DNA of 63,475 bases, the filler included, from Porpidia crustulata (taxonomy: Eukaryota), in the NCBI GenBank assembly GCA_964255105.1. It is 5 parts of 5 records of this genome, joined end to end, with 100 filler letters (N's around TTAATTAATTAA, not from the genome) between each part and the next. Parts side by side here need not be neighbours in the genome. Positions count along the whole stretch, not along the records: positions 38,176 to 50,780 come from CAXUWE010000506.1; 4 more parts are not named here. One strand, given 5' to 3'. Under the pieces are notes generated by a model, which saw only the letters and a program-made list of their open reading frames with translations, searched no databases and was not told the DNA's origin. Below, one piece after another: positions 2,168 to 62,993 of the stretch; positions within the stretch are counted from its first letter, which is position 1; the number at the start of each line of letters is the position of its first letter. A program made the translations under genes and the position numbers.

Positions 2168-4505
2168 TTATAGATCTCCTGGAATGGATAATAGTGGAGG
2201 TACGGGACTAGTTCGAAGAGAGGACGGTCTAGGTGATGGATGTGTTGAACAGGCAAGTAATGCATAAATATTTGTATTGGTGCAGATCCCAGAATATGGG
2301 AATTCTACAGAACATATATAAACCTCTGCCACGCTAAGCCTAATCCAGCTTAGTAGTTGCCTAAACGAGCAAAAGGGGTAATCCACCCGACCCGTTCATG
2401 GAAGCATATCTGCTCAATTCCAACAGGATGAGAACCAGGAAAATGATACATCAAACACCCCTGTGATACTTGTCCGACTGTCCATCCCGTTCGTAAGACA
2501 TCTTTGAAAGACCGGGCTCCCACTCATCAGTCAAGACAAGACGCGAAGAACTCCCATCAAGGAATCTAGTTTCCTAGCTTTGGAATTATTGCAAGGAAAA
2601 CGTGATCTTTCGTTCATTTTCAACCATCATGAGGGTTACTCAGCTCAGGTCTTTTGGGGTTACTCGCCACGCTTACCATCGTTCTTATGGGCAAGAATAT
2701 ATCACAGTCGCCCCGCGCCAGTACAATAAACTGCTACCGAGGGCTACCACGACAACAATAGCCACCTCTACTGCTCAAGTGCGTAGAAGAGGCCTTGAGG
2801 CACGAGACTGCTTAGTTGTGCGCGAATCCAAGCCGCATCAATAGGGAAAACGCGTAGAGAAAAATATACCAGGCAAGTTGATATCAAAAAGCATAGCAAT
2901 TGTGGAGCCGCATACAGCCACTGACATCAAATCGTTAGGAACCAGCCCACTGATATCAGCTCTTCGGAACATCCCCAAATCTGTGTGATACACTCCCGGG
3001 ATCGTAACGAACGGCCTTGCGCATGGTGGTGTCCAAAAACATAGCATCGTGACGGGCTTAAAGGGTCTTTACGTATTCACCGGAAACATTTTCATCGACG
3101 GACAACGGATGGAGTCGCCCATGCCATTTATCGCTCGATGGGACTATGATGAAGAGAAGCCAGCGTGAGTACACATCCTTCCCTTCCCAGTACATGCATA
3201 TCCCTATCGGACATTAAGAAAACCCAAATGTTCTGAAAATTTGACACTGCGAGAAAGCCATGATCGCTGTCGCGAGTGACTTGGTGCCTAGATATGGCCT
3301 CGCTGTCATGGATTCGGATTGTGAAACACATGGTTTGATTATGAACGGTGTGGAAACAACAAAGCCTCGGTTTTTGATGTACTACACATAGCCATATGTT
3401 TGTTCCAATAATTGTGGGTAAACAATCGCCTGTCTTTCAGCTTAGTAACAAGATGAGGCTACTTCTATCGAGATCTGCAGAGAGTCAGATACACGGCTGC
3501 CGAGAGGAGACAGGTGAGAGAAAGATTGTTGCAGGTTCGTAACAGAAAAAGCATTTCGAGAGACCATGCTCACTAATTGTTATAGTCAAAAGGTCGTTTT
3601 GCACATATTCGAGCAAGGGAAAAACAAGGAGCTTTCCCTATAATTACCGCAGAAGCGCAGCCTCGAGTGAGAACGAGTGCGCGCCCCACCACAAGGCCAA
3701 AGCTACGACAGTAGAGGGCGAGCCAAACTCGGCCCTCTGATAAGCTGGTAACAGAGATGGGGCATTAGGACAAGATGTATTGCTTCACGGCCGTGCCACT
3801 GCTCTCGGTGGCATGGACCTGGGCAAGGAATTCACGAGCCTTCTCCGCTGTGCGCTTCAGGTTTTCGAGCGACTCGTCCAACTCATCCCTCGTCTTGGCC
3901 TCCCTAATCATCGACCGCAATTCTTCTTTCTCGACGGTGGCAATTAAGCCATGCTACTTGATTGGATGGCATGTTAATTTATAATGTCTATCTGTGATTT
4001 GGGTCGGATGTAAATAAAGAAAATGTACAAATATCCTGTCGAATTGCTTGAAAAAGGAGACAATTTTGATTGATAGAAGGGAAGACGACCCAAGCTCATA
4101 CTGACCATCTCGTCTTTTTATATCCAGGAGCTTGGTGAGTCATGTTCGTCATGACTGATGTGAAATCCAGTAGATGGGACAATATTCGGCCGACCGAATC
4201 TTGCGCTGCTCTCTTGATGGTGGACACATTCCTCCAAAATTCAGCTAGACGGGGAATTGCGATCCCTAGCGCCGGATGGTCGGCGGGTCAAGGCAGGTAA
4301 TATACTTTCAAAAAATATATAAAATAATAATATATCTAACACTAAGAAAACTGCTAATAACAGTGTGGCGGACATACGAATTGCCGCGACATCAATATAT
4401 GGCACGCAGGTACTGACTCCAGCAAATCGGAGCTGACATGTAGCAGGGACTTGGAGAGCATCGAAGCATGGTTAACGGCCGCCCCAGTTCGTCTGTGGAA
4501 CCATC

Positions 4506-7689: not shown

Positions 7690-10600
7690 ATGGCAGGAAT
7701 TCAAGTCAGCGAGGTAAAAGAAATCCGCGAGTCCGAGTGGACCGTCCGCATGAGTCATGGCGGCGTGGAGCGACAATGTCAAGGTATCATTTTCATCTTC
7801 CAAATGTTAGCCTGCTATTAAACATAGTTTGCAGTACGAGATCCTATGTTCATCAACTACGACCTGACCGAGGACGACGTTCGCTGGCTACTGGAGGATT
7901 ACCCAACGTTCTTTCCATACGACGTAGCCAGTGCAAATCAAAACAACTCCGCTCTCATCAAATATGGCGAGCTCCTGGCGGAACAGCTCGATCTCCAAAG
8001 CACGATACATTCCAGTAAAAACCAACCTCAGACAACATGGGTCGTCGACATTTGCGACCGCGGTGGCGATTCCGTATTCCAAAAACTCTTCTGGGAAACC
8101 TTGGAACCAGCCCTGGCGAAAGAAGGATTCAAAATCTTCGTGCGTAGGAACGCTACGCTACCACCCATCGTGGACAAGAGGACCCTGGAGGAGAAAAAGA
8201 CATCGACAACTGAAGCTCACGACAATGCAATGCAGATGATTGAGCCAAACGCCGTGGATGCTACTCCGCCCCGCCCTTGCAAGATCTGGTTCGATGGCAA
8301 GTCTATGGTGCGCAGGATCAATATCTTACTTGTCGTCTCTCGGCCTTCTAGAAAGGATGATATCAACCCATTGATCGCTACTAATGGCATCATCGATGCC
8401 ATGATGAGGTCGCGGGAATTGCAGCGTGCTACTCTCGGCTCCGAGTCTGGATTGCAGATCAGGGTGGAAATAAGCCGACCCGGAACGTGGACTGCCTTCA
8501 AGAAGCATCTGGAAAATCGTACGGACTTTTGGCGTCGCGCAGGGGGCACGGGAGGGTGGTTCGATCTCGTTCATTTTGATTGCCATGGCGCTGTCAGGGA
8601 CGGCATTGCGAGCCTTCTGTTTCTTTCTTCGAGCGGGAACAAGACTCTTCGATGCTCTGCTGAGAAAATTGGCGACTTGCTTAGATTTCATAAGGTCAAA
8701 CAGGTCGTCTTACATTCCTGCGAGACGGCAAAGGTCACTCGATCGACCCAGTCTAATATGGCAGTTACACTTATCAACATGGGTATCGAGACTGTGATTG
8801 CCATGAGTTTTAAATTCACGACCTCGGCAGCAGAGATTTTTGTCAAGGCCTTCTATGATCGGCTTTTTGCTGACTCCTCGGCCAACATCGAGCGTGCCTT
8901 CCTGTTTGCTCGTACGGTCTTGAAACATGAGAAGACCCGCATTGCGAGATTTAATCTAGAAAGACAGATTCCAGACTATATTGTTCCAGTCCTGTACTCT
9001 TCACAAAGAGATGATTCTTCGATGGCCGACGTGGTTCAAGCGGTAGATGATTTCACGGAGAAGGGCTTTCACAGTGAACGGTACAAGGCCACTGACGAGG
9101 CGGAAGTTCTGGGACGGGAGCACGATGTCTTGGAGATAGAATGGCAGCTATTACGTTCACCAAAAAACAACATTCTATTATTGACAGGCGATGTAGGTAG
9201 TGGCAAGTCCTCGTTACTGGGACTTTTGATGCAAGTCTGGGGATCTTCTGGTCTGCTGAGTTCGGCGAGCGCTTTTGATATGAGGCGGGACGATGCTGCT
9301 CCCGTCATTCAATTCGTTCAGGCCTTGAAAGCCGGCGAAGATCAGATATCTGGCGACAAGAAGATGCTGATCCTCGTCGACTCGCTTGATGCAGTTGTAC
9401 ACCCAACCGGTGTTTACAAGCACATGATGTCTCCAGACGTCCGAGCGGCAATGAAGCAAGCCATATTGGATCTGCAAGGAACCAACACCCTAGTAATAAT
9501 CGCCTCTCGACAAGAGGAGAATTGGCTTGGGCTGCCTCAAAGCCAACTATATCGGCTCAGGCCGCTTACAAAATACCATACCACATCCATAGTCTCGAGA
9601 GTTTTGAAGTCGCTAGGCAAAGAAGATTTTCTCGAGGGAGATGAGAATCTACTGTACATCGAATACTTGATGTATCGCTTAGACTACAATCCACTATCAC
9701 TTGAGTTGTTTTTGGGATCTGCAGTAGCGCAACGAGAATATATCCGAGGAAAGAACCAAACTGTCACCGACGAGATGGGTGACATGCCAGATACGCCGAA
9801 ATTGCTCTTCACTTTGACTCTCAAGGATGGGCTCATTATGGACGATGATCACCAGATGAAGAAGGAAATTTCATTCCTTACCGAGAAATTGCTCGGTGAA
9901 GGAGGAGGCAATGCGGTGGTTCTGTTCGCACTTGCAATTCCTGCGAGGATATACCGCAGAGAATGGCACGATGTTGCTGCCGCGTGCATCTGTCATATGG
10001 AAGAAACCCCCAATTTCATCACTGGAGATAAAATAGACGCTTTTGTGGCCTTGTATCTCCTCGATACAGGCTGGATGGACACTTTTGAAATGCTGTTCTC
10101 AGATGGCTCTCGAAAACGCTACTATCGCATTCACCCTTTGCTAACCAACGCCTTTCGTCAACTGTTGGTCAGTGTACCCTGGGGAGGTCCTTGGCGTACA
10201 TCACTGACAAACAAATTCATTTATTTTTACTGCATGTGTGTTTTGGAAGCCCTTGTGGCGAAGGACTTCATGGAAAAGCAGGTTCACTTGATTGAGATTG
10301 AATGCTACAATTTTCTGAGCGCGGCCGACGGATACATTTACGTTTTTGAACATCACCCATTCATACCCACCAGACAGAGGGCTACTTTGCATGCGCAGCT
10401 TTCTTACATTCTGAGAGCTCTGCACATCGCTTCTGCGAAAGGGCGCTCGGAACGCTTGCCCATGGAGCTGGTTCAAGTCCGATTGGAAAAGTTCGCTTCC
10501 TACCTCGAGTTACGGCTTGACGAAGGACATCTTGACGATGACGAGAGTACAGAAGACTCGCATTCCTCGAACAATATTCACATACTCGTTGACATACAAA

Positions 10601-12480
10601 ATCGACTTGCAGAAAATATACTTCTGAAATATCCGCAGAAAGCTGCGTCTTATGCCGACCGGGCTTTGCGAGCTGTGCTCAAGGGATGCCAGAAAAGAGT
10701 CAGCTGGGATATTTCACAACGAGAAGCCGTTGCGTTTGCCCTATTGCATCGTGGAGAATCTAGCCTACATTACAGGGGCCGTTCCACCCTTGCTAGGCAA
10801 GCGTTCGAGATGGCTTTGCGCTGTTTTCGCCGGGAAGATGATAGCAGGGCGTCACGAGAAGACAGTGTGATGATACGCAAGCGAGGATATACCGGTTTAG
10901 CGAATTCTGAGCGTGCTATTAGGGAGTTCCATCATTACACAGATGGCTCCTTCAACGAAGCTGCTTACACAGCAGCCTCTTTGAAGGCCGAAAAGGATTA
11001 TTTTTCGGCCGACACCCAGAACAGTCCCATTTCAAAAACGGATGCTGGTTTTGCAACCGCCAAAGACACCCTCACGTCTATTTATGTGGAGGATGACATG
11101 CAAGGCTGGCAATCCTCGCTCTTAGCTTCCTTCACGCGAGCTGAAGAGCTGCGAAAAGCTGGCTCAATTCCAGCGGCCAAGGATATCCTGCTGTCCATTG
11201 TCACTCAAGCTCAACGGGATAATGACATCTACGCCGAGCATGCTTGTCGCTATGCTCTCATTGACCTCGCTATACAGGAACACGACTGGGCTGCAGCAGC
11301 AATGCATATTATTCGTGATGCGAGCCTTGAGAAGCAATCCTCTTCCATTGGACCTGACTGGTTTGCCATGACGGCTCCTGATCGTATGATTCGGGAAGCC
11401 CGCCACGGTGCCGTTTTTCTTCGCTTGCATATGCTGGAACATGCACTGCGCTTTTTCGACCGAGGCTTGAGCGCACTAAAAGGCACTTTGCACACCGATG
11501 TCCTTTACCCGTCGTCTCCTGAGGCGTTCGTTGACGTAGTGTTGGATGTTGGACGCTTTGGGCTAATCTTGCTCACTGGTGAGCCAAGAAATGTCATTAC
11601 CATACCTGAGTTCTTCGCATTAGACGACATATTACAGATGCTGACAATCAGACATGTTCTCGATAAATGGCCTGACTTTGATAACGTGGAAGAGAAGCGG
11701 GTCCTGAAGATGATGAAGAGACCTGAGTGGATGGCCTTCCTCAGCCAAGTTGATGCCAAAAGTCTAGAGTCGCAACTTGCTTCAGGGGAGTCCAAGCTCA
11801 CATTTATTCATTCAGCGGACATGGTCAGGGCAGGCCCAATTAGAGTGGAGGCTAATGAAGAGAATGAGATGCAGGTAGAGGCCGCAATCGCCATTGAACG
11901 TGCACGCGGCAAAATCCGTCACAATCGATCTGATGTCGCCAAAGAGGTGCAACTTGTGAAAGGACTAGGAAACACAACGCTGAATGAAGAAGAAGATAGA
12001 GCTGTCGATGAGGAATCCGTTGATAAGAACATCGATCAGGGTTCGACGCCTGACGCTGGAATGAGCCTACGTGATGACGGGCAGACTCTAGAGCAGAAAA
12101 GTCCGAAAGTCAAAGCTGCAGCAGCCAGCTCTAGTATCGCAAGAGAAGATCAGAAGACCACTGATGACATTGTCAATTCTAACAAAGAACCTCGACTTGA
12201 AACAAGCGACCAAATCACCGCCACAGACACGGACAAAGGCAAGGCCGAAGCGCAGTACGAGAACAAAAATGAGGACGAGGACGAGCCTCCCTTCCCATCT
12301 TTCCCCGCACCCAGAAACGACAGACGTGCCTACCGCGTGCTTCCCCTCGACCCAGCCCCAGCTGAGCTGTGCGATCTCAGCCCGTTGGAGGAGGGAATGC
12401 CGCTCTACGACGCTGATCCGGAAGGCGATTTCAAGGGGCTATTGAAGCATGACTTATTGGATTTGCCTCATATCTATTAA
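7690..12480 (+). CDS. CHAT (caspase-like, clan CD) protease - P-loop NTPase (NB-ARC/NACHT-like) - helical/TPR-like repeat protein, NLR-like architecture
   Basis: Open 4.6-kb frame 7846-12480. Catalytic motifs LVHFDCHG (H near 8584) and VVLHSCET (C at 8719-8721), Walker A GDVGSGKS (9187-9210), Walker B MLILVDSLD (9364-9390), winged-helix-like YRIHPLL, then Ala/Leu-rich helical repeats. A probable first exon 7690-7783 with intron 7784-7834 joins in frame. Confidence 0.85.
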
Positions 12481-34476: not shown

Positions 34477-36689
34477 ATGACAAAGACCAATCCCACAATG
34501 GAGCGCCCAGCAGAATACTACAAGCAGTGGGAACGCGACATGGACGCCTTGACTCTCACTCAAAGTGTCTACAAGCCGAGCACGGAAAAGCTGATACTTT
34601 TACTAAAGGATCGGTGGTGTCGGTGAGAAGTCATTACTGAGTGACACATATATATACTGACACTCATCAGGTATTGTAAGCTCACAGATAAGGACGCTAT
34701 AAAAGCTCTTAAGGCAATATCCATCAAAATTCTCATCCCCTTCTTCGACTGACTACTTACCGTCAAAGATTTTGGCACGGCCAGTATTCTACAAACCTAC
34801 TAGAATGTGTTCAATCAGGTGCGAAGACAAAAGACTGAATGCCTAGGTCTTAAGGCTCTCACCAAGTCACAGTTTTGACCGATGTGTATGCTCACACTCA
34901 ATCCATAGATATATAGTTGATCCACTATAGTGGAGATAACATCTAGCTATCAACTATAGCTGAGACTCCGAGAAGAAAAAGAAGCCTATCATGCGCGTTG
35001 AAGACGAGTTCGAACTCTTAAAGACACTACACACTTCTGATGAGATGATATTCAGTCATGAGCGACACCGTGTAGAGCTTGCATTGCTTATGCAGCTTGG
35101 AGGTATCACGGGCAATCGGCCCCCGGCGCTTCTAGCTGTTCACTACGGACACGTCAAGGTCACTTTAATTGAGGATCCGAATGGAGGAAAGTGGCCTCGG
35201 GTGTTGATCGAGATAGCATACAAGTGTACAAAGAGTTTCTTGGGCCCCAAAGACACGCACCAGCCTCATCACCCCTTTCACCCGACATTCGAGACTAACG
35301 TGTATCGTAGGAATGAATTTGGGATTGCCGATATTCCCAATGAAACATGCCCGCTCCTCTGTCCTCAGACTACTTTATTCGCTTTGATATTTTCGACTGT
35401 GCGTTTGACGCTCCCTCGATCACTTTACCAGAGCAGCTGTTTCGTCTAAGAATACCTCAAGGACAGAAACAACTGTCCATACCAATGAAAGAAGCATGGC
35501 CAATAATCCACTATTTCGCCGCTCAGAGAAGACGGTGAATGGAATTGAGATTTTTAATAGCCAGCCTTTTTCAGATAGCAGCCCCCACGATAGGCTGGTT
35601 ACTCTAGGCAAAGTCTCAGGCTTCCAATATGTGACCGGCCCATATAATTTTCGACGTAGGAATGGCGAACCCCTGAATAGTAGTAGTAAGTCATGAACTC
35701 ACCTTCAATCTCGAGCGTCCTTTGATTAGGATAGGCTTTATTAGTGAAGCACAACGCAATCTAAACTTACAACACTCGAAATCGGCAACCTTCGTGAAAA
35801 GCTACCTTTCGAGTATATCACAGTCGACACTCAAGCGGCTTACCGTGGCTTGGAACCACAAACCGCACCAATGCGGGCGGCTAGCGGCATAAGTCGTATC
35901 ATCGATCGCCGTAGGCCTCACAAGCTCACCAGGGCTCGCAGAGCTGAGATTGGCCGTCATCCAGAAGTAAAATGGTCCCACAGACGACTCCAAAAGATCT
36001 CAAACTATATCAAAGAGACACATGACGCTATCAGAAGCGTAGCTGAAACTTCGATGCACGACGAGTACCAGAGGGTTTCCAAGAATCATCTCAACTTGAA
36101 GCGGCGCCTTGAAAAGGCTTTTCTGAAGGATGTCATAGCTAGATACGAGGTAGAGTAGTCAGTCGCTGATATTGAGCAGCAACTGGGAGGCATACCCCAA
36201 AATGAGCTGAAGTTAATGAAATGGGATGACTTCTTATTCCTTGAGCGTACTCAAGTCATCGAGGCCCTATTTACTTTTGTGACTTCGTCTCCACAGGAAG
36301 AGTCTCAGCGACGCTCGAATGCCATCAAAACATTGATATCACTTTACAGCTTATCAGACGCTCACAAGTTTTATCGTGGAAAGCCGAGCAAGACTCGCAT
36401 TCCTGATCAGGATAAGACACCAGGATCAAAAACAGAAGCCACGAGAATCTCAGAGTCCCTCCTAATTGAATGTCAACTGACTCAGTGTGTCTTCTGCCTA
36501 GGCAGAGAAGATTACCCTTCCGAAAGTCGTCAACATGCTTTCCATAGCCGTTGCGATCTTAAGCGGCACTTTCATCGTTATCACCTCCAACACTACGAGG
36601 AGGGCGAATCAATACTGTGCCCTCATCCTCGGTGCCGAGTCTATCTGACGACCAGTATGCAGATACGAAACTACGCTGAATCGGTGTAG
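34477..36689 (+). mobile_element. DUF3435 tyrosine recombinase (Starship captain-like) with C-terminal zinc finger, RIP-inactivated
   Basis: HERHRVELALLMQLGGITGNRPPALL, CPLLCPQ, PYNFRRRNG, SEAQRNLNLQHS, DTQAAYRG, DRRRPHKLT, and CVFCLG...DLKRHFHRYHL...CPHPRC. TGG has become TGA/TAG in exon 2 and there are several frameshifts. Confidence 0.85.
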
Positions 36690-38175: not shown

Positions 38176-38898
38176 GATTTGAGATTTTTTGATATTAGAT
38201 GGATGGTTAGGGAATAGATGATCTGGCTAGTATGTACTGTGTATCTAAATATTGGATATCTTTGATTTATTCTTCTGAGTTTAAGATATTGTTGGTTAGA
38301 TGTAATATCTTTTCTCCTGCCAAAATCGGTTTGAGAAAAGGGGTTATTTGAGCGGCTAAAGTTATATGGACAAAATTCGTGTATTTATGCAAACGTACAA
38401 AGGATGAAGCCTTAGAAAATCACAGAGTGGTATGACTCATAACTGTTTAGACATCACTATTTAGAGCCTTATATATGATAATATTCTATACTGAAAGCGC
38501 TCCCTCGTCCATCGGGAATTCTGGTGAAACCTAGATATATCGCTGCATCCACCATGCTTATCCCACTCTAATTTCAGGTCTACCTCCTCCACGCCTTGCT
38601 TCTGAATGCAAATTTCGGTTATGTCAACGCGGTTTTCCTGTCAATTCATCTTGGTGAGCACGGAGAAGGTGTGAGTGGTCTTTTTGCCTGTTGCTTGGTG
38701 GATTAGAGCTTGGACGCAAGAGCCTAGTAACTCATATACATGTTTTGCAAATAAAAAGGCCAACGAGAAGGTCTGGGGATGGTTCTGGTCCTCCCATGGA
38801 CCTAGCGGAATTCATGCAAATCGGTCGACTCCGAATCTATTGCAGCCTGCTACTTCCTATGCTTTAGTACTATCCACTCAAGGGCTCTTTCAATCCGG

Positions 38899-39863
38899 TT
38901 ATACCGAACTCGATGTACACCACCTTGCAAAAGGAAAGACCGCCTGCTCGCACCACCTCCGACCGTCCATAAACCGCATAGTGTAAATTGAGTAAGCGGT
39001 CCTCGATGCGAGAGCGTTTCTTTCCTTGGCAAATGATACGACAATGGTATCACAGTCGTCGCACACTCGAAATCCCGTGTTCCATTCACGGATGGCATAA
39101 TCCGAGTCGCTTTTCCAAGTCGACGAGATTTTCCGAATCAATGCGTCTATACTCTGATGCGGGCAGGATAACCGCGGAGATGTTTCTGGGGAATCATAGG
39201 GCCGGGTGAAGCGGTATTTGTGGATAACTCCGAATCCGCCGCGGTCGTGGTCGATGCAATATTTGATACTTATTTGCACTTCGATGGTGCCGTAGACTTT
39301 TCGGCATTGGTGTGCCCATGGTCCGTCGGATTCGAAGCGTAAAGCTACATGATCCCCCGCTAATGCACGAGGACCTCTGTAGAAATACTGGCCATCATCC
39401 CTCCAAGAGTTGTTCTCCTTTGGTTTTGGGTCTGCACAGATCCTGGCTTTGATCTCGTGCATTTTCCGTGGCGTCAGTTTGATACATGGACAGAGATCGA
39501 TCACTCCATAGGGCGAGGAGGAGATTGGTCCAGAAGACGAAGCGGGTAGCAGCCGACAGCAACTTCTGGCCACCGGTCCCTTGGACCTGGAAAATTTGCT
39601 AAGCTAACGCACCAATGACGACTCGTGCACGCTGAACGTGTGATTTGGATGGAGCAGAAAATAGACGGAGCGAAGGGACCATGTGCTTAATACGTCTTTC
39701 TCTAGGAGCCGAAAAATTTACCACCGTTCGGGCTGGTATAGTTGTGGGTTACTCGTGCCTGCGTCCTGGAGATTTGGAGGTTGTTCCACCGGCATCTCCA
39801 ATCATTGAAACCTTCCCGATGACAAGTGGTGGAACTTCTTGCAGGCTGAAGAGAAAGAGGCCA
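38899..39863 (-). pseudogene. F-box-associated family protein relic
   Basis: GVIDLCPCIKLT, WAHQC, SCPH and VCDDCDT are typical of a fungal F-box family C-terminus. The 5' part is frameshifted. Confidence 0.45.
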
Positions 39864-39887
39864 TATTGTGCTCGAGTTATCGCAAAC

Positions 39888-39984
39888 TCGCGATGTACCC
39901 GAGTACTCGCGATGTACGCGAATACTCGCAATGTACCCGACATGTACGCGAATACCCGCGATGTACCCGACATGTACGCGAATC
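39888..39984 (+). repeat. Minisatellite built from ATGTAC(C/G)CGA units (19-30 bp period)
   Basis: Directly visible: ...TCGCGATGTACCCGAGTAC TCGCGATGTACGCGAATAC... Confidence 0.85.
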
Positions 39985-40099
39985 ATCGAGTCGATGAAAA
40001 TCTCTGACGTGCGCGATGAGCATTATATATTGATTACTGTCGTCACGTTCTATTAAAAATTCTTGCTTCTGAGCTGTCACACGGTTCAACGAAACGACT

Positions 40100-40440
40100 T
40101 CGACTTTTCGAATCTCGTCGTCGTTTTTGATTGAATCGACGTTTCGCAGAACACAGTTGTGGGAATGATGAGTGTGAGAAATTCTGCGAAATCGCAGAAC
40201 ACATACGATACTGTAGATCGAGCATCGTATATTGGATTTTCTTCTCCGTGAAAAGGCGAGTGACGATATCTTATCGTTCTTTGCGATCTCGCTTGTAGCG
40301 GTGATCAAACAGATGCGTTCAAGCTGATTAGAATCTTCGTAAAGAAAGAGAGCCTGCTTGGGCGCTTGGGGGAGCTCCGAGCCGATCAAGGAGATGATTT
40401 CGTTTGGGAGAAGCTCGATAGGAAGCGAGGCCCTTGGGCA
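40100..40440 (-). pseudogene. F-box motif relic
   Basis: IELLPNEIISLIGSELPQAPKQALFL fits an F-box motif. The downstream sequence is decayed. Confidence 0.5.
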
Positions 40441-43280
40441 TTTGGGTCGAATGGGCGAGAATACATAGCGGAAATTACTGAATTTCGTTGCTATGACTTA
40501 AGACGGTCGGAGGAACCTGTTCGAGATTGGCGAGTCGCTTTTCACATTTTTGAAGCCTTTCGAGTATCGACTATTGTGGGACCTCGCCTCAGATCCATGA
40601 TGACAAGTAACAGCTTAAGAGGTAGATTTCTGAGAACCTTGTTACTGCTGACCGACTCTGTTAATAATGTTTGAATTATAGAAGCGAAGAAAAGCGCTGA
40701 CAATCACCAAGCTTCACCTAATGTGCTTGAAGAAATGATACATTGAGAAGAGTTAATGAATGAAAGATTCTCCACATGATGAAATGCAACCAGTCAACGC
40801 TGTGATTAAGAGACATCTATAGCTAATTTAGAAATAGTCCGTGCTGCCAAGCGTAGGTAACCAGGGCAAAATACCTCAGAAGGCCCGTAGAATCCCAGGT
40901 ACCTGATCTTGATAATATGTGGTCTCTGATGTGAGTCAGTATATGTTGCAAAGTTGATGAATCGTGCAATAGATGTGCGATCTGATCTGATCTCGTTTTT
41001 TCGTTGATGGAATTTCACTAGGTTTAAGGATTCGATCTAATATCTATTTCGCCGTATACTCCGATGAGTTGTATCTATTTATGCTCTTTACGTTGATAGA
41101 AACTTCGTATAATAATTAAGAAATCTATGCACAACTGTCGGTATTGTCCAGCAAAGGAAAACAAAGGACTTTCCCCTCTTTTCGAACGCTTCGTCGCCGC
41201 CGTTATTCATAGCGTATTTCAGGTTTCTTTTTTTTTGTACTCAACTTCGATCATTTTAACCACGTGCGAGGACATCATCGATGCCAAAGATATCGAACCA
41301 CCCTTTGGGTTACGGGCCATGCGACTATGGCCATAGAACTCAAGGATTCCGGATCCGCTTGCCAAGAACGAACATCTTCGATCGACATTTTCTTCTCGAA
41401 AGTCTTCTTTAGACTCACCGCTGAGATTCTTTGGTATCTGGATGCTTGACACAATCTGGGATTCTCCTGTTCAACATGCTAATTCTTACATATCCTTTCT
41501 GGTGAAAATCCATAGAGCAAAATTTGATCCTATCTCTAGAACCTACTATAATTAAATACCAACTGACAAACACGACTCTCTATCACTCCTCAGCGCCCCG
41601 CAGACGGAGTGCCACCGATCCTGTCCATATGCGAATGCGCCGCAGCTGGGATTCGAACTCCGGACCTCTTCCCGCGCAGCCGACTTGAACTGATAACGGT
41701 TATTGGCGCTGGTACGTGCGCGCCCAGGAGATGATGAGATGATTGACAATCTGGAGAAGGCCTTGGAAAGCCTTGGAAACTGGTTCGGAAAGGCTTCCTA
41801 AACATCTTCGGTAGTTAGACGTTGATAATTATCGCGCTCCACTAACGACCGCAGTCGTGGAGGGTTTCCGTAACATGATATCTAAGAAGATGATCATAAC
41901 CTGATCCCCAGTTGATCAATTATTTGACTATCCCGAAGACAATGAAGTCACGGCATCCGGCAACCTTGCCAGCTCCACATTACATCATGGCATTGCGAAG
42001 GCAGAAAAGGAGAAAGCCGAAGCAAAAGAGAAGGACGATGCCATGTCATACAAGACATGCGGCAAGGATGGTCATGAGAAACGAGCAAGCCAGAAGAAAT
42101 TTTGGGAAATTTAGCAAGCTATTGGTATGGTGTCTTTAAACACGTCAGCTTTCGAAGCCTCGTGCAAATTCCTGCACCTGAATCCCGATGACCCTATTCT
42201 GTGATTCAGTCCTGTCAATCCCTCGATGCAAGTTGACAGCTGTCAAACTGGACCAGGAACTTATGGTTTTTTCGTACTTTCTTGGTTCGCGGACTCAAAA
42301 TTTCGGTTCCTCGACGTGCTTGATATGTTGTTGGCCCACCATTGTGTTTCGATCTTGGAATCGCGATAGTTGCTTGGGAGAAACCTAGATATATAAGCCA
42401 TCAGATAGCATATATAAACAATAGTGCCAAACCATAGCACTGAACGATTGATAAGTTTCTGATTTACTAGAATAGCTGCAAAGTACATTGCATCCCATCC
42501 TGCATTGTGACAATATAACGTCACAATTTTTGTCGACTCGCACTTTGACTTCAAGAGTCTGTGTGCTACGTTGTAATATCTCATAACAATTTTGCTGAGA
42601 CTTTCGTCATAGTCGAATCTATATTCAACGTTATGATCTGTCACTGCTCATTTCGTATTAAAAGCGAACGCGTATTGTAAAACTGAATGATTGAAGATAT
42701 CGGACTCGAGAAACTTAATCTTTTAATAATCAGAGACAGCAGCGTGACTCATGAACATTATTCTTGTTAACTGACTTTCTTTTCTTTTCTCGCGCTCATC
42801 AATTAAGATGCGCGAAAAGAGAAAAATGTCGATAATCTTTCGAAGACTGTTAACATCGCGAAGTTTTTCTTCGAGCTGCGCGAACTGTGCTTTTTAATCT
42901 GTCGTGTTTCGCATCTTGACTATTATACGTCGTCAACAGCAAACACAAAACGACACATGTTAATACATGACTGAGATTTGACTTACATTAGCTGTTGACG
43001 AGGTTGTAGAAATGAGATCTGAAAATTGTTCTTGATGCAGAAGCTCTAGAATCGAACATCAGTCTGTCAGCAACGACTGACTAGATCAAACTTCAGGACC
43101 TCAATAAACCCCACTCTGCTCACCAGAAAAGGAAACACACAATAAGCATTAGATTCCAGTAGAGCAGGGTTCTGAGGGTGGAAGGGGACGTGGAATTTCG
43201 AAGTGCTATTGGGCCATTAGAAAGCCATTTTTATGACTAAGTAAATCAAGCCGATCCACAGGACCTATCAAAACAAGGAA

Positions 43281-43920
43281 TCAAGGCCTATCAAAGATCT
43301 TGTTCCGAACCTGGTGAAGCCTTCTTCTGACCCCCCTTTTTCTGGTGTTCCCAATGGTCTGATCTTCCGGAAATGGCGATGTTCTTCGTGCCAGATGCCC
43401 AATCTTTCGAACGAATTTCTTTAGGTGATTTCCATGGAATATCCCCTTTATCCCCCTTCCACTAAGCTGCATCAGTAGGTATTAGATCCCATGCTGCTCG
43501 TACTCCGAACTTCGAAACGGGCCCCTCCATAGAGACTCCAGTTTAGCAGTATCTTTCTGGAATAACATGACCAGATCCCATACTGGTAGAACTATTTCCC
43601 TTACCCCTGTATTATATCGGGCTGCTTCTTCTTTCTTCATTTGGTCAGGTAGTCGGCGCATTTGGTCATGGGTCTGAGCCCGGTAGTTAATTCATTGTTT
43701 TACCGCTTTGACACGCTGAGTAGGGTTAATTAGCTGATCGATCCAGGACTCAACTACCCTGAGAGTAGCCGAAAGAACTTTCGGGTCCAAGGCGGAAGAC
43801 ATAGGTGATGGCGAAGCACCTAATAAACTTTCCGAAGGGGCTGCTTCCAGATGTATCACCACCCTAGAATTCAATGCTCTGATTGCTTTTGACAAGGCCA
43901 AGTATCACGAGTATCTCAGT
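43281..43920 (-). mobile_element. Ty3/Gypsy integrase C-terminal relic
   Basis: ALSKAIRALNSR...PSESLLG, then KLESLWRGPFR...YLLMQLSGRGIKGIFHGNHLKKF (GPF/Y module), with stops and frameshifts. Confidence 0.75.
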
Positions 43921-44058
43921 CCCTCGCTTCTTGAACGATTGTTTTGTGAGTCGGTACAGTTTATTTCTTCCCGAAACCCGTCCCCGAGCACCACCCTTTC
44001 AAAAATAACCCCCAAAAATTCCACTGCAGAGGTTAGACAAATGTGCATGACAATGAGA

Positions 44059-44092
44059 AAAATATAAAATCAAAAATCAAAAATCAAAAAAA
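44059..44092 (-). terminator. RNA polymerase III oligo-T terminator of the tRNA-Pro gene
   Basis: A T7 run (44086-44092) starts 3 nt after the discriminator and is followed by further T5 runs. Confidence 0.8.
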
Positions 44093-44095
44093 GTG

Positions 44096-44240
44096 GGCTC
44101 GGGCCGCGATTCGAACTGGAAAGAATGAGGATGTGTGCGGGAACTTTGGAGATATTATGAAACTTACCGCGGGGCCTCTCGCAAGTTGTAACTTAGAGTT
44201 TTTTCCCTAAGCGAGAATCATACCACTAGACCACTCGAGC
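44096..44240 (-). tRNA. tRNA-Pro(AGG) with two intervening sequences: canonical 21-nt intron (44184-44204) and 52-nt GT-AG insertion (44116-44167)
   Basis: GCTCGAG TG GTCTAGTGGTATGATT CTCGC TT AGG G [21 nt] T GCGAG AGGCC CCGCG [52 nt] TTCGAAT CGCGG CCCGAGC C. The acceptor stem (one 6:67 mismatch), anticodon stem and T stem all pair. Confidence 0.9.
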
Positions 44241-45503
44241 TGTTGGCTGAGCATGAGCTTAGATGGTTTATATTCTTAATAACTTCTCGAGCCTGAACCT
44301 TGGCACCTTCGTCTGCGATGCCAGCGGGTGCTACTAGTCTATTATAAACTACAACTACCTAGTTGGGACGATGATGCATATGACCCTGATAGCACAGCAC
44401 AATCTGTGCATCCTTGGCTTGAATGATCACCCGTTTGACACGAATCGTCGTCAAGATAACATTAATAATTCGTGAGTAAAACAGCAACAATATAAGTCTC
44501 CATGGCCTCCTGCAACGCACCTAATGCCGATACCTAGAAACGAAGATCCACCTCGTACTTAAACGTTCAAGGCTATTAAATTTGCCATTTACATTGATTC
44601 CGAAATCGTCAGTTACTTTCAAAAGACGCTAATTATTATCAAGTAAAAAGCGAGTGCATTTGCAATACGAGCGATCTCGTCAGAAAAAGTAGCAAATGCC
44701 GCAGAAATGACGAGCGAGAAAGATTTCGGAGAGTTTCTCAAAGTTAGACTGAGCATTGCTGTAAAGAATGCTCAAATTGAAGATTAATATAATAGTTTTT
44801 TTATGTTTAGATTGATATGATCAAGTACAAAGCGGCTGTTTTTTCGATCCGGTTTGGGTGCCGGAGTATCGAGAAATAATTTACTCGAATCAAATCTTAT
44901 CATCGCCGTTATCTCCAAATGGGTACGATTTTTTTGAGGGTTAGCTTAGCACTGATCGAGGTGGTGGCTGCAGTCTTGGATAGAGGATATGCGGATTATG
45001 GAAAGACTATGAATGAGAGGTTGATGCGATCTAGATTGAAGTAATACAGACTGTTGAGAAGGTAAAGTTGAAAGACGTAGGTGAGGTTTTAACTCAAGAT
45101 TAATGATTGATCTGTAGGTTTGGAGGGATCCCCCATCCTCGACATGATTCGTACCGCACGGATCAGCTCGATTTGATTTTGGCCCGAAGAGCCTCCTTTT
45201 CGGCATCGTTTCCGTCGTTCTTCTTGTTTCACACTGCGTTTTTTAAAACTGTCGTCTCATTGAATCTCTCATTGAATCATTCATTGCAGAAAACTAAAAC
45301 CCTTGCGCAGTAAGAACACTCTTGAAAAGAAGCCTGTCCTGAAATTCGACATCACACCCCGGGCGGATAAGAATTTGATCCCACCGTCTCGTCCACCGCG
45401 CGCAGGACTATTTGTACGGCGCCGGTGTTGCCGGTTCGTCCGCTACCAAAGATATGGCTAGGGGCTGGTGGCTGGGGGCTTTGTGTGTTCTTCGCTGCTG
45501 CTG

Positions 45504-45521
45504 ATATATATATATATATAT
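45504..45521 (+). repeat. (AT)n microsatellite
   Basis: Directly visible. Confidence 0.85.
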
Positions 45522-46899
45522 CACACTTTCAAATCTGTGTTATTCGATTTTACATCTTTCTTTCGGCTCTTGACTTGAGAATCTTTCTTGAGATCTCAAC
45601 GATCTATACATCGATTATAATGCTCAATTCACATTTCTCATATTGACGATTCGAAACGCCGCTTGATTGTTCCTTGCACGAATACGTCTTCGTCGTCGAT
45701 AAATTACCGCGATGATCAATTTTTTTTCTTGAACTTCGAACCATTCAAATGCTCACATCGTCATCGTCATTAGACAGTATGTAAAGGGTGATGGTCACTG
45801 GGGCTAGTGGAGTTCAATAGGAAGGGAACTCTCTACTTATGTTGATTAGCTAGCGCCGGCCGGCTAGCCCCCTTCGCTCCTTCCTTACCCCCATACCCCA
45901 TCGAGCCCGTCACACAGTATCAGGACTTCTATATCTTCGGATAATGATAGAACCTTCGTCGTTGGTCTCACTATCATGTGTATGCTTGCAAGCGACCGGA
46001 GAAGACTATCAAATCCGCTTGTGTCGAGGTTGGGATGATGAGGACCATGTTGAGTTATGATCTGTCAGGCTCGAACCGGTAGAGGCAGAGGCAGAGGCAG
46101 ATTGGCAAGGGAAGAAGTCCTAACACAAGTCTTCCTTCAGCCGTTTTGTTTCATTTTGATTTGTTTTAATTTGTTTTAGTTTACGCCAGCTGTACATCCC
46201 GACAAAGGCAGCAAGGGTTTGGTTCAGCGTCTCCACGCCACGGGCTACCATAAGAGTAGCATCGATAATTGGTGGTGCGGACGTCAGTCCCGAGCGTCTC
46301 ACCACCCGTTGACCGACGGTCAGCATGGTGTCGTAATACTTCTTGTGCGCCTCGAGGGCCGCGAGCTCTGCATGGTCCTGTCCAGCCGGAGCGCAATCGT
46401 AGGCGACATGGAGGTCAACAAAGCCGTTGAAATCTCCCACACAAATAGCAGGAATCTGTCTATTCGTTATTGGTTACCACCTGAGGGGGATACTTTACCC
46501 ACCGCTTTGCACTCGGAACCCTGGGACTGGCAGTACGAACACTTCCTCAATATAGTGGTACCGGAGAACTTGGAATTCTCCTGAGATTCAGCTAATCTAG
46601 ACAGCTGGTTTGCTTGACATATGATTTTTGGAATTCTTTTCATCTTAGCTTCCGGGCAAAGTTAATCGTAACTGATGTGAGGTGTTATTTTGCATCGTAG
46701 CGTAGTCGTGGAGACGGTATTTCCTTTTTATTGTATTTATAGACGCTAGTTAAGGAAGAGTAGCCCTTGCGCCTGGTTTGTCAGGGACTGAACTATTGGA
46801 TATCAGTATTGTTTGCATCTATTTCCCTTAGTTGAGGAGAACTTTAGACTCTCAGAGCTTCTTGATCGTTGATCCTTTTGATGATAAATCACCATTCGC

Positions 46900-49750
46900 T
46901 AGTTTCGTGTACTTGCGAGTTCTAGGAGCTCTTTGATCCGTGTCTCAATACCGACTGGCTCAAAATTTCAATGGCGCTACCAGGAAAGCCATCTAGGATA
47001 TCGTGCCCGAAGCTCTAAAGAAAGCCATTACCACAGCGCTCTTCGTGAAACAAATCATGAACACATCTATCCAGGCGACGACGAAGTCAGATCAAGAGAC
47101 AATCTCAAGAATCGAAAGCCAATCCAAAAAACCTATTATCAGCCTTCCCCTAAACAACCAACTCATTACTGATTCGATAAAGCCAAATCCAATTTTATCG
47201 TGATCAAGCTCAAGAGCTACGAAATTGGAAACAGGAACGCAGCTTGTAGATCAGATAATTAGGAAACGGAAGGTCGACGGTCCAAGAGAGTTTCAACGTC
47301 TCTTTCGCAGTCGCAGTATCCTTTGGCACGGACATTTTGCCAGCTGATCCACTCATATATGGAATACAAAATAAGCAGAAATCTCGACATACAGGAAGAT
47401 TCCGTTATATGTGGCGATGATTTATCCGAACTCTGGATTCTCAAAGGGCATTCTCTCCAGCTCCACTAGTATATTGTTCAGCTCTTCCAGGGACACCCAG
47501 TCACAGCTCATGCGTTTCATCCCCGTTAATTTCCTACCGCGAACATACCGTCCACGATAAAAGTATTGTCACTCCACTGATGCAGTAGCTCCCAGCAATC
47601 ACGGCTCCCCAAAGCGTGAGACCGCCGTGGCTTTTAATGATTCCACGCCTTATGTATAGAAGTAATATCAAGAGTACTTGGCGAAGTCGCTCAGCAAGTC
47701 CAAATAGATGTTTTGTAGTAATATCTGACATAGTATTTCAATCCGATCCGAAGTACTCATAGTAGTATTGGCGCTAAAAATTGCTCGAGTTCACATTCGG
47801 TCTTGTCTGTATCTGTATCTGTATCTGTATCTGTATCTTGATCCTTTATCTTAATGCGTTCCTCAAACTTGAGATTGTCAGCAGTCTCTCGATACGTCTT
47901 GGCCTGCTTCTGAGAGACTATCTCCAGGTCTGTGAATACTGCCGCTTTTTGGAGGAACCGCCCAGCCATATCATATACAAAGGTTCTAGAGACTTCGAGC
48001 GAGGAACTTTTTGCTGCCGTTCTCGGAGATTCCCTTCCTTGTTTATCAGAATGGGGAAAATCAATGGGATTATCTTGGCGGTAAATACGGTAGTATCGAA
48101 GTTAGACTTGGATTTCGACTTCTCTCGTTCCTTTTCACAGTGGATAAGTCCGAGAGCGATGTCTCCCGTACGATCATCACAAATATTACCATTGGATACG
48201 ATCTTCGAAACGTACGCCAATGATTGATATCGACGCAGAGACCATCGATACAAGCGGAGAAATTGACTCGGATCGATGCTTAGACAAGAGGGTGAATGGA
48301 CAAGTAAATAGGTATGGTTTCCAATATCGCCGACTCCGATGACCACTGTTCCAAGCTATCTATTCTCTGTACAGCTCGCCGCTGCATACTCGGAACGCTT
48401 CTGTAGCCGAGAGGCTACTGTCGATATTCCCTGAGACAGCAGGATCTGATCGATTTAATACACGCGATCATTATCTTCGATTTCTGTATTTGAGACTTGC
48501 TCGCGTTGGTCTCCGAGAGAAACCTAATCTCCAGGTTTCTTTATTTGATAAAGTCTGAAGTTGATAATATGTAGTTTCGCATTTGAATTGGTATAGATCG
48601 CTGTACGCGATTTGATCTCGTCTTGTTATCAAAGGAATTTCTTGTGGTTTGTGCTAAGTTATCGACAATGATGCGTGCTTGCATGATATATACTAACAAC
48701 ACAGTCATTTGTACTAGTGTTTCTGTAAATTAATACATAGCGCAGAGACGTTTAAGCAAGATAAATATATGATTGTAAAACGAGAAACACTAAATCATTT
48801 TAGGTGCGTTTCCTTTCAGCTTCTTCTCTTAAGCTCTTGTAGGTCGAAGGAAGTGTATGACGAATGTGGTTATCTCGTGAAATTTCGGGATGCTTACTCC
48901 ACATCTGAGTCGCGAGATATTCTATTTAAGAGAGAAACAAGGATTGTCGCGCCGACGCGCACGCTTGAAAAGTTTCCCATGCTTATCTCGCATATCAGCT
49001 GTTTCTTGATAGTCTTCTACTCGCTTTATTTGAAATCTCAGAGAAGAGAAGCTGTGGGATATCCTTAATGGCACGTACTGCTCCGGCTCGACTTCGATAT
49101 ATCTTCATCTTGGAGTGCTCGACTATTTCAGGTCACACAGGACGGTGATGCTTGGCTGTCGCGTTGTCTCAAGACATGGAAAGACCGTTGTATGCATTAA
49201 AGTATCAGCATAGACTTCATGATGTAGCTGCGTATCAACAGATTTTCTGAAGCAGAAATTTTTGAGATGCAGAAAAAAGCCCAGTTTCCATCTATCAAAT
49301 CACTCGTTGTGTCTCTCTAATATGCTCTTGACATCCAGTCGTGACAATCATAATCCCTGTCATTCTCCTTTATTTCTTAATATGATATGGTTTCCGTTAG
49401 AGACAGACGTCCAAGAAAGAAGACTTAGCTGTAACATCTGCGTTTTCAGGATAGCAATGACATCAGTATCGTCTGATATTTGCGACATGTCATCGTCTTC
49501 TCAAGGCTCTCTGCGCTCAACCTCTGCTGCATCCCATTTGATCTTTACTGTTCTTGATCTCTCTATAGCCTCCGCAACGGGCTTCATCCGCGCATCTTCG
49601 AATTCTTACCATTAATAGCCGCAAGTCTGACTGCCTTAACTCTGTTCTCGCGCTTTGTCATTGTATACGTTCTCTTCAGCGGAGCTGATTCTTGAATCGC
49701 AACTAATGCAGCTGTCCAGACTACTCCAGCTGCCATAATTTTCATTCAAT
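46900..49750 (-). pseudogene. Decayed coding or TE relic(s) of unknown family, containing (GTATCT)5 at about 47809-47838
   Basis: Short protein-like segments in shifting frames (47918-48346, 47757-47969, 47534-47731) with many TAG/TGA stops. Confidence 0.3.
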
Positions 49751-50780
49751 TCTGTCCTTCTGGTATTCTCGCCCGTCTATATCAGCAAACCTTTATGTTG
49801 GATCTTGTAATTTCGCATCTTACTGACTCTATAATCTTCTTAAAATAATTCATCTATTCTGTTGGAAAGTGCGGTAGGACGAAGGCCTAAACTCCTCATT
49901 ATCTAGTCGGTGTGAATGGATGGATTGGATCTAGTGATAGGGCTTTGCCCTACCCCTGTCTTATGTGACCACCTGGCCACTCAACCTTCTAGTTCTGTAC
50001 GTAATTCAGTAGCAATACTACGACAGTCACCCTGCCTGTTCAACATATTCCTCTCTTCCAAATGCAGCATTTGTGTCGTCACATATAAGTTGTATTCAGT
50101 GTTGCTCTAATCGGTCTGTTTCTTTGAACCTTGTGATCCTTGCTTCTCTTGTTTACTTTTCCCCAATAATAGATCTGTCATAGAGATTCTCCAGCCCAAG
50201 ACCTCCTTCGCTTCCCTTGCGTTTTCTTGTTTCTTTCTGACTTTATCACACTTCTCCCAACCTGCGAGGGATATTGCTAGTGCTTCTCTTTTTTCTCTGT
50301 CCAGTCGGCTTGTCCTTTCTTTTGCTTTTTTTTCTACAGTTTCTGCTTTCAGCTATCAGGTCGTATAGAGTCCTCATTATCGTCTCTTTAATTGCTCCTA
50401 AAATTAAATTCTATTGCGCTGTACGACTGTAGAATTATGTTATTTTAATTGAAAGGATGTTGGTAAATGAGTCTTTTTCCCACTAGAATTCGCATTTCGC
50501 TGTTATTACTAAAGTCCCAAGACTGCCGTCTCCAATTAAGTGACTAATTGTAAATAAGAAGTACTAGTTTCAGCAAGATAAGTCTCGCCGCTGACTTGAG
50601 AGAACCTAGCTGCAGCTGACTGGGATCCACTGCATTGATTGTGTAGTATCCGACGGAGAGAATATCCTATGCTCCTCATCTTCTGAACATCACTTATTAT
50701 TCAAGACTTCCGCTGCATCTTTATATTGCTACGACCACCCCCAGGGGTATTGGTTTACCCGGGTGAGGAAGCTAGGTGGG

Positions 50781-61500: not shown

Positions 61501-62993
61501 GCCTTGGTCAACGTCGTCGACAACATTGAAGATACCGAGAAAGGGAGTCTTAAGAAATTGAAAAGCATGATTACACACAATGATGGCGCTCAGTGGGCAC
61601 TGATCAAGGCGCCACAGAAAGATCCCGAAGACCGCGACTATGAATGCGACGTTGCAAATATTGGAAAGTGCTCGTTACATCTCCATGGGTATACTGAGAG
61701 AAAAGATCCCCGAGATACCTTTTCTTCTTTTTCCGCTGTTGGCATGATGATGGCCGTTGGTAACGTTGGAGAATATCTGACAGCAAAAGACGACGGAGAC
61801 ACGTTCTTTACTCGAGACGGCGGCGTGGAGTGGACCGCAGTCAAGAAAGGGAATTATATGTGGGAATTCGGTGATCAAGGATCCATCATTGTCATTGTCG
61901 AGGAAAACGTCGCTACGAAATTCATCTTCTACTCTATTGATGAGGGTCAGACGTGGCAACAATATCAGTTCACCGATTCGATGATGCAGATATCAAGTAT
62001 TTCGACTGTCCCATCTGACAATAGTCGAAATTTTCTTCTCTGGGGCAGAGACTCAGACAAGAGTAACGGGATCAAGACTGTGAATATTGATTTCACCGGA
62101 CTTTGGGACCGGCCGTGTACTTTGCATGAGGAAAACCCGGAAGGCGACGATTTCTATCTGTGGACACCGATACACCCTGCACAGAAAGATGATTGTCTTT
62201 TCGGGCATGTAGCACAGTATTATCGCAAAAAACCCGAAGCAGATTGTTACAATGGCTACCAGCTCCGACAAATCCACAATATTTCACGCAACTGCGATTG
62301 CACTAGAGGCGACTTTGAGTGGTAAGTCACCACTTCGGCATATCGTTTGAACACAAAACTAACGACTCATCCCTGCATAGCGACTACAACTATCAAACCG
62401 CAAACGACGGCTCCTGCCAACTCGTCCCGAACCTCGAACCTCCCGACCACTCGAAAGCCTGCGAAGCCGACCCAGAACTAGTGTCCTACTTCCTCCCCTC
62501 GGGCTACCGCCGCATTCCCATGTCCACCTGCGGAGGCGGCCGCGAGCTCGAGTATATCTCCGAGGAACGGCCCTGCCCCGGCCGCGAAAAGCAATTCGAA
62601 GACGCCCACCGCGGCCTCTCCGGCTTCTGGATCTTCGTCCTCGCCGTCCTGCTGCCCGCTGGCATCGCCTCGACTGTGGGTTACTGGGTCTGGCGCAACT
62701 GGGACGGCAAGTTCGGACGCATCAGGCTCGGGGAATCCGGCGGCGCGTTCGATGCCGATAGGCCCTGGATCGCGTATCCGGTCATGGCGGTGTCCGGGGT
62801 CGTGGCCGTCGTGGCGGCGACGCCCGTGCTACTCGCGAGTCTGTGGAGGGGGATTATGGGGCTGTTCGGTATGGTTGGGGGTGGCAGGAGGTATACGACC
62901 CGGCAGAGTTTCGCGCGGGGCAGGGGCGATTATGTTGGAGTGGATGCGGACGAGGATGAGTTGTTGGGCGTGGATGATGACGATGAGGTGTAG
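58504..62993 (+). CDS. VPS10: Vacuolar sorting receptor Vps10/Pep1, 1476 aa, exons 58504-62321 and 62381-62993
   Basis: Signal peptide, two Vps10 domains with Asp-box repeats (SDDAGVTW, SFDDGRTF), and Cys-rich 10CC modules. Intron GTAAGT...ACTAAC...TAG restores DFEC|DYNY. TM helix and FGRIRLG tail are present. Confidence 0.97.

Follow-up and report, generated by a model that had tools for sequence, protein, structure and literature searches.

The stretch of DNA analysed here (the window) comprises 63,475 nucleotides (nt), filler included, from Porpidia crustulata (GenBank assembly GCA_964255105.1), and the part of it that concerns us, positions 38,176 to 50,780, comes from record CAXUWE010000506.1. 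On the minus strand, at 44096..44240, lies a gene for tRNA-Pro(AGG), delimited from G1 to the discriminator C73 with ARAGORN, which holds two inserts: the canonical tRNA intron, and a second one of spliceosomal type within the T-arm. The first exon (G1-G37, 36 nt, 44240..44205) provides the 5′ strand of the acceptor stem, the D-arm, the 5′ strand of the anticodon stem and the anticodon AGG, and carries an A-box-like element, TGGTCTAGTGG, in its D-arm (44233..44223). It is followed, after G37, by the canonical intron of 21 nt (44204..44184), placed by ARAGORN at position 37/38, in which the motif CTCTAAG is complementary to the anticodon region. Exon 2 (T38-G53, 16 nt, 44183..44168) adds the 3′ strand of the anticodon stem, the variable loop and the 5′ strand of the T-stem, CCGCG, and is separated by an insert of 52 nt (44167..44116) from exon 3 (T54-C73, 20 nt, 44115..44096) with the T-loop TTCGAAT, the 3′ strand of the T-stem CGCGG, the 3′ strand of the acceptor stem CCCGAGC and the discriminator C. 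These five pieces, all on the minus strand, sum to 145 nt. The insert itself opens with the donor GTAAGT (44167..44162), contains a branch-like CTCAT (44129..44125) whose A at 44126 lies 10 nt from the end, and closes after a pyrimidine-rich tail with the acceptor CAG (44118..44116), the whole end reading TTTCCAG. A B-box-like element, GTTCGAATC, consists of the last G of the insert (44116) and the start of exon 3. On the same strand the gene is followed by runs of T7, T5 and T5 (44072..44092), the first of them 4 nt past the discriminator, which resemble terminators of RNA polymerase III (Pol III); they are separated by GA and look like stacked terminators. A TATAAA at -32 to -27 from G1 (44267..44272, minus strand) counts as weak evidence.

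On native DNA this gene escapes detection. ARAGORN reported no tRNA in the native window, nor in the native locus with its intron search switched on, and Rfam found no tRNA on the native DNA either at the gathering score or at E ≤ 10 (a match to PsrR1 at E = 10 was discarded as chance). After 44116-44167 had been deleted by coordinates with a script, ARAGORN called tRNA-Pro(agg) i(37,21) and drew a complete cloverleaf for it. The same outcome was reached in a blind test, in which GT...AG segments of 35-120 nt were excised from both strands of the window and of the 33 metagenome loci described below, leaving 37,431 candidates after pre-filtering for TTC[AG]A. ARAGORN returned 640 calls on these, 52 of which span the junction; within the window there is exactly one junction-spanning tRNA, and it is this tRNA-Pro(AGG). 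The remaining junction-spanning calls are related split genes, or arise as edge effects where falsely matched loci contain ordinary tRNA genes. A tRNA-Val(tac) with an intron of 2,155 nt at 1453-3699 of the window (minus strand) was taken as a false positive of the permissive intron mode of ARAGORN.

The original prediction for this locus had described a gene for tRNA-Pro(AGG) that contains an intron of 21 nt and an insert of 52 nt running from GTAAGT to CAG, and both the sequence and the coordinates are as it gave them. It had also expected the tRNA to reappear when the insert is deleted and the gene to be overlooked by standard finders, and both expectations were borne out; its remark that the acceptor G preserves the B-box is likewise correct, the DNA still reading GTTCGAATC. 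Two further statements hold in part. The insert was said to run exactly from GT to AG between G53 and U54, and its removal in that frame does restore the T-arm, but as a G stands both before the insert and at its end, the boundary can slide by 1 nt and GT..AG is one of two equivalent frames. The stems were said to be undamaged, and the restored cloverleaf is indeed complete, but its acceptor stem has a single mismatch, A6/C67, according to ARAGORN. As this mismatch is common to the window and to all eight genes of the set of relatives called class A below, it is a native trait of the gene and not a sign of decay.

Related genes were collected from metagenome contigs with a pattern that combined the conserved Pro exons with two gaps, one of 1-31 nt at the anticodon loop and one of 40-70 nt right after the 5′ strand of the T-stem; the content of the gaps was left unconstrained, so that neither GT nor AG was required. 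The scan yielded 33 loci, of which 11 are true split genes. The other 22 belong to other organisms and are ordinary tRNA-Pro genes without an interruption, downstream of which TTCNANTC occurs by chance; they were excluded from the split-gene counts. In all 11 split genes the insert begins with GT and ends with AG, is 50-53 nt long, occupies the same position in the T-arm and contains no T run longer than 3 (the longest run in the insert of the window is also 3). The donor is GTAAGT in three of them and GTAAAT in eight; a CTRAY motif (CTAAC, CTAAT or CTGAT), whose A precedes the 3′ end by 11-12 nt, and a YAG acceptor (TAG or CAG) occur in every one, and all 11 carry in addition a canonical 37/38 intron of 18-19 nt. 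Fungal branch sites follow the consensus CTRAY at about 8-25 nt before the 3′ end of the intron.

Two side observations were made among the 33 loci. At about 618-865 (minus strand) of locus L017 there is an ordinary tRNA-Pro(AGG) with an intron, from another organism, and no more than about 20 nt after it comes a further stretch resembling a T-arm (CGTG TTCGAATC CACGG), which may be one half of a different tRNA gene. Locus L025 is a 2-kb contig of another organism with a dense tRNA cluster (Val, Ala, Pro, Arg).

The split genes fall into three groups besides the window. Class A has eight members (L003, L005, L015, L020, L022, L028, L029 and L030), which the near-identical pairs L003/L020 and L022/L028 reduce to six distinct sequences; group B1 consists of L007 and L027, and group B2 of L002 alone. 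Flanks within class A are 92-97% identical to one another. When the window, A, B1 and B2 are compared, similarity is confined to the tRNA itself, and the intron interiors of the four groups resemble one another no better than shuffles do, except for A versus B1 (p ~0.01-0.04). Since class A is one closely related set, we count four independent lineages and not twelve. The flanking proteins give an idea of the organisms concerned: in class A the flank encodes NDUFAF7 (PF02636), whose best named relatives are Lecanoromycetes at 63-67% identity (Lecanora helva, Letharia columbiana, Mycoblastus, Alectoria, Xylographa and Toensbergia), and the flank of L002 encodes Med31 (PF05669), with the lichen fungus Pleopsidium flavum as best named relative (77%). 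In the window, the Vps10 protein has its best named relatives among Lecanoromycetes at 61-64% identity (Hypocenomyce scalaris, Lecanora helva, Pycnora praestabilis, Candelina mexicana and Lasallia pustulata), with metagenome proteins reaching up to 78%. Judged by these flanking proteins, class A, B2 and the window appear to belong among the lichen-forming Lecanoromycetes. From the shared position in at least four lineages, together with interiors that have diverged beyond recognition, the T-arm intron appears to be old.

The exons of these genes behave very differently from what surrounds them. Over all 73 exon nucleotides the window agrees exactly with 8/8 class-A loci (exon 1 included), though introns and flanks cannot be aligned between the two. 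Column variation, computed on the six distinct class-A sequences, amounts to 0/73 in the exons as against 20/53 in the T-arm intron and 5/19 in the canonical intron, and 55-64% of the columns vary in the 200-nt flanks. The acceptor strands read GCTCGAG / CCCGAGC in the window and class A and GGACTTA / TAAGTCC in group B (L007, L027 and L002), so that five of the 7 acceptor pairs have changed on both sides and are still paired. Strands that lie on either side of the insert and change together evolve as one helix of one RNA. Since the exons are invariant while introns and flanks drift, and since the acceptor strands co-vary across the insert, the gene should be alive and the insert must come out. 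Taken together, the cloverleaf, the conserved exons and the stem covariation point to a live and functional tRNA gene. With regard to its possible use, 56 of the 112 proline codons in two large open reading frames (ORFs) of the window are CCT or CCC, both of which this tRNA reads.

What is conserved within the T-arm intron itself matches the signals of the spliceosome. In class A its invariant parts are the first eight nucleotides (GTAAATTT), a block ATCT.A. that takes the forms CTAAC, CTAAT and CTGAT, all of them in keeping with the CTRAY consensus, and the last six nucleotides (CTTTAG), while the rest of the intron varies. A random 52-mer of the composition of the inserts starts with GT and ends with AG with P = 2.5e-3, and it contains CTRAY by chance with a probability of 0.066; GTAART, CTRAY and YAG occur together with P = 3e-6. 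If the 1-nt sliding is allowed for, GT..AG has by our own arithmetic a probability of ~5e-3 per independent group, or ~1e-7 for the three groups that come from the unconstrained scan. The original prediction had also likened the length of the insert to that of the protein-gene introns in the window, which it put at 51-60 nt. This is partly right: the Vps10 gene has an intron of 59 nt (62322-62380, with GTAAGT, CTAAC and TAG), but it is the only mRNA intron of the window confirmed by homology, and ORF-joining candidates with full signals span 42-113 nt over 17 rows, the best-supported ones 55-87 nt. At 52 nt, the insert lies within the size range of the host mRNA introns. An insert unique to this copy, lacking conserved splice signals in related genes, was named at the outset as an argument against a spliceosomal intron; the opposite was found, GT...AG and CTRAY being present in 11/11 relatives. 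A match of the insert to a transposable element had been named as another such argument, and a search for a second copy, as expected of a repeat, an introner or a transposon, gave none in the 63-kb window and the 33 loci.

The gene of group B2 is interrupted at one more place. In L002 the D-loop contains a further insert of 52 nt (L002 1617-1668, minus strand; GTTGGT...TACTAAT...AAAG), which sits between GGTCTAG and TGGTATGA, that is, at 15/16, and has a weak donor (GTTGGT), a branch motif CTAAT and the end AAG. ARAGORN finds nothing in the native L002 sequence and nothing after removal of either insert singly, and calls tRNA-Pro(agg) i(37,19) once both, of 52 nt each, have been removed. The presence of this D-loop intron beside the T-arm intron means that introns are not limited to one site of the tRNA, and the lineage of L002 seems to have acquired the additional GT-AG intron of the D-loop. 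Together with this insert the DNA reads AGGTTGG at the place where an uninterrupted gene has AGTGG; we speculate that the odd donor GTTGGT, by leaving AGGTTGG, may keep an A-box-like element. A separate peculiarity of group B is that the mature tRNA contains CGCGGTAAGTC, composed of the 3′ strand of the T-stem and the 3′ strand of the acceptor stem, and that the same 11 nt, CGCGGTAAGTC, form the exon-intron junction at the T-arm donor of L007 and L027. This recurrence may be chance, arising from the palindromic CGCG stem, or may be a trace of the origin of the intron.

Considering all of this, we think it likely that the locus is a live nuclear tRNA-Pro(AGG) gene with introns of two kinds, an endonuclease-type intron of 21 nt and a U2-type GT-AG intron of 52 nt for the spliceosome, and two splicing machineries are probably required for this tRNA. 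With rather less assurance, though we still favour it, we extend this to the group as a whole: lichen-forming ascomycetes would possess nuclear tRNA genes of an old class, with true spliceosomal introns at more than one site (53/54 and 15/16) beside the 37/38 intron, whose single Pol III transcript passes through both the spliceosome and the endonuclease and ligase, and which standard finders miss. In the pathway we propose, Pol III would transcribe the whole unit. This step is suggested by the intact A-box, the retention of GTTCGAATC, the lack of internal T runs of 4 or more and the T run after the gene in all four groups. The spliceosome would then excise the T-arm intron in the nucleus, whereupon the T-arm and the elbow would form. 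Trimming of the ends, export and loss of the 37/38 intron would come afterwards, with the tRNA splicing endonuclease making the cuts and tRNA ligase sealing them. The T-arm intron should leave first because the later enzymes need the T-arm and the elbow.

Measured against the general A-box and B-box consensus sequences, the two box-like words, the downstream T run and the lack of internal runs of at least 4 T form a pattern expected of a Pol III type 2 gene. The B-box survives in the DNA because the final G of the intron replaces G53. Introns of Schizosaccharomyces U6 genes reportedly contain a match to the B-box as well, to go by the title of a paper cited in a review of these introns. Among the related genes, a run of T5-T9 is found within ~25 nt downstream in all cases, and TATA-like words occur near -30 in class A and B1 and weakly in L002.

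Several points weigh against the interpretation given above. First of all, the case for splicing is built from the sequences of genes. The branch-like CTCAT that the original prediction noted is present, with its A 10 nt from the end, but it departs from the CTRAY that is seen in 11/11 relatives, so the copy in the window may splice poorly. The donor GTAAAT of class A is weaker than GTAAGT, GTTGGT in the D-loop intron of L002 is weak too, and the exon contexts GCG/TTC and TAG/TGG match the usual proto-splice site poorly. The lack of T runs of 4 or more in the insert does not discriminate as a Pol III signature, since candidate mRNA introns mostly lack them too (a T4 run is found in 3/17 candidate rows, and these three share one donor). 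The only domain match in the flank of B1 is Yae1_N at 27.0 bits, below the cut-off of 27.5, which makes this group eukaryotic at best. Finally, our analysis of the host covers the window, and uninterrupted Pro(AGG) copies, if there are any, would make this copy dispensable.

Three other explanations have to be weighed. The spliceosome might remove the intron from a longer non-coding transcript of RNA polymerase II (Pol II), from which RNase P and RNase Z would then release the tRNA. This would fit the usual habit of spliceosomes, which normally act on Pol II transcripts, and the TATA-like words near -30 are compatible with either polymerase. We nevertheless regard it as unlikely, as in all four groups the gene has T5-T9 runs immediately after it and none of 4 or more inside, the A-box and the B-box-like element are kept in the DNA, and no ORF-joining intron candidate overlaps the locus (according to a first ORF-based finder, which is noisy); moreover, transcripts of Pol III (U6) and of Pol I (rRNA) are known substrates of fungal spliceosomes. 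Slightly harder still to believe is that the interrupted genes are tRNA pseudogenes that suffered an insertion, or tRNA-like RNAs retaining the insert for another role. Standard finders do reject the native locus, the copy in the window lies in ~10 kb without a recognisable gene and has a DUF3435 fragment at ~36 kb as a neighbour, and it has both a branch site off consensus and the A6/C67 mismatch; but the 73 exon nucleotides are identical across species, in the window and the eight class-A loci, class A varies in none of them as against 38% of the intron, the acceptor pairs co-vary across the intron, the helix between anticodon and intron is kept, the mismatch is shared and hence no lesion, and the insert is single-copy in the window and the loci. 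We give least credit to removal of the insert by the tRNA splicing endonuclease at a relaxed bulge-helix-bulge, or by another route of nuclease and ligase, for even though non-canonical introns in the D- and T-arms are known from other eukaryotes and some folds allow the strands of the T-stem to pair around the insert, six precursor folds from the four groups contain neither a shared structure at the cut sites nor a 3-4-3 bulge-helix-bulge, the conserved parts are exactly the three spliceosome signals within a freely varying interior, and the 50-53 nt of the inserts are the size of host mRNA introns.

The two inserts of the gene also differ when each is set beside the canonical eukaryotic tRNA intron. 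The 21-nt intron agrees with it in its position at 37/38 and in its pairing with the anticodon, the anticodon-intron helix being present in the folds, whereas the 52-nt insert sits at 53/54, is longer and bears splice signals that the endonuclease does not use. Introns outside 37/38 are known from archaea, Cyanidioschyzon merolae and nucleomorphs, and in the accessible parts of two papers (PMC3978253; PMC9602550) they resemble the present ones in lying in D- and T-arms, occurring several per gene and being missed by finders. Unlike those, which the tRNA endonuclease cuts at a bulge-helix-bulge, the inserts described here revealed no such structure in the folds and have GT, CTRAY and YAG conserved instead.

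We know of no described spliceosomal intron in a tRNA. The original prediction had made the same remark, and a full-text literature search agrees, having returned no described spliceosomal intron in a tRNA gene, with the proviso that papers outside the searched literature could exist. In the accessible text of a 2023 review of tRNA processing (PMC10275265) the word 'spliceosomal' has 0 occurrences, and the accessible part of a review of U6 introns lists spliceosomal introns for U6, U2, U5, U1 and rRNA genes, with tRNA not among these hosts (PMC5855946).

The closest parallels come from those other non-coding RNAs. According to the accessible part of the U6 review, U6 of Schizosaccharomyces pombe is a Pol III transcript spliced by the spliceosome, and fungal U6 genes have up to four unrelated introns (PMC5855946). 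Like the T-arm intron, these interrupt a short structured non-coding RNA made by Pol III, are ~50 nt long and have a canonical 5′ splice site, branch and 3′ splice site while being otherwise unconserved; some of their positions are common to relatives and others are specific to a lineage, and reverse splicing has been proposed as their origin (same part of PMC5855946). U6 differs from a tRNA in that it lies within the spliceosome's active site, which explains its being hit by introns, and tRNA-Pro(AGG) differs from U6 in that the same RNA also requires the tRNA endonuclease and ligase. A second parallel is found in the same group of organisms: ectopic spliceosomal introns occur in the ribosomal DNA (rDNA) of lichens, one of which was removed from Pol I transcripts by yeast spliceosomes, and in Cladonia grayi, for instance, one measures 57 bp, as reported in the accessible part of the paper describing them, the main text of which does not contain the word tRNA (PMC8527467). 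These rDNA introns are likewise short, of GT-AG type, housed in a gene that Pol II does not transcribe and removed from the mature RNA; the difference is that their host is an rRNA transcribed by Pol I, and here a tRNA that Pol III would transcribe. Spliceosomal introns in non-coding RNA genes as such are thus already known, and what would be new is for a tRNA to have one, and to have it alongside a canonical tRNA intron.

As for the rest of the window, its recognisable proteins are those of fungal genes: a Vps10/sortilin, a CBFB_NFYA of HapB type, an MBOAT_2 and a CHAT/AAA_16 protein. The last of these corresponds to a frame of 1,550 aa at 7828-12480 (plus strand) with a CHAT domain and an AAA_16 match below threshold (21.4 versus 32.6 bits); CHAT with AAA_16 is an architecture like that of NOD-like receptors (NLRs), common in filamentous fungi. 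Around the tRNA gene, in the stretch of ~10 kb mentioned above, none of the 10 ORFs tested from 39.8 to 52 kb has a match in Pfam, and the DUF3435 fragment (36159-36689) is a hint that a mobile element has decayed in the vicinity. The window also contains eight runs of 44 N each, 352 in all, which form four evenly spaced pairs and resemble masking and not assembly gaps.

Introns of tRNAs and of mRNAs differ in position, in signals, in the enzymes that remove them and even in the cell compartment where this happens, and a tRNA that needs the spliceosome would, if the interpretation is true, break this textbook separation. It would place tRNA beside U6, U2, U5, U1 and rRNA as a host of spliceosomal introns, and would provide a second natural Pol III substrate of the spliceosome, one that is not itself a part of the spliceosome. 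Such a host bears on the birth of introns, where reverse splicing into abundant structured RNAs is to be set against proximity to the active site. A gene of 145 nt with three short exons, two machineries and natural variants with one or two spliceosomal introns would also make a clean test system. For annotation, it would mean that genes are currently being missed in a whole class of fungi; as standard finders are blind to the split genes, published tRNA sets of lichens would lack them. In the accessible part of the work on lichen rDNA, it is proposed that ectopic introns let lichen fungi slow the making of their translation machinery (PMC8527467). If tRNA genes are indeed interrupted in the same manner, then together with the rDNA introns they would tie the supply of translation components in lichens to the capacity of the spliceosome.

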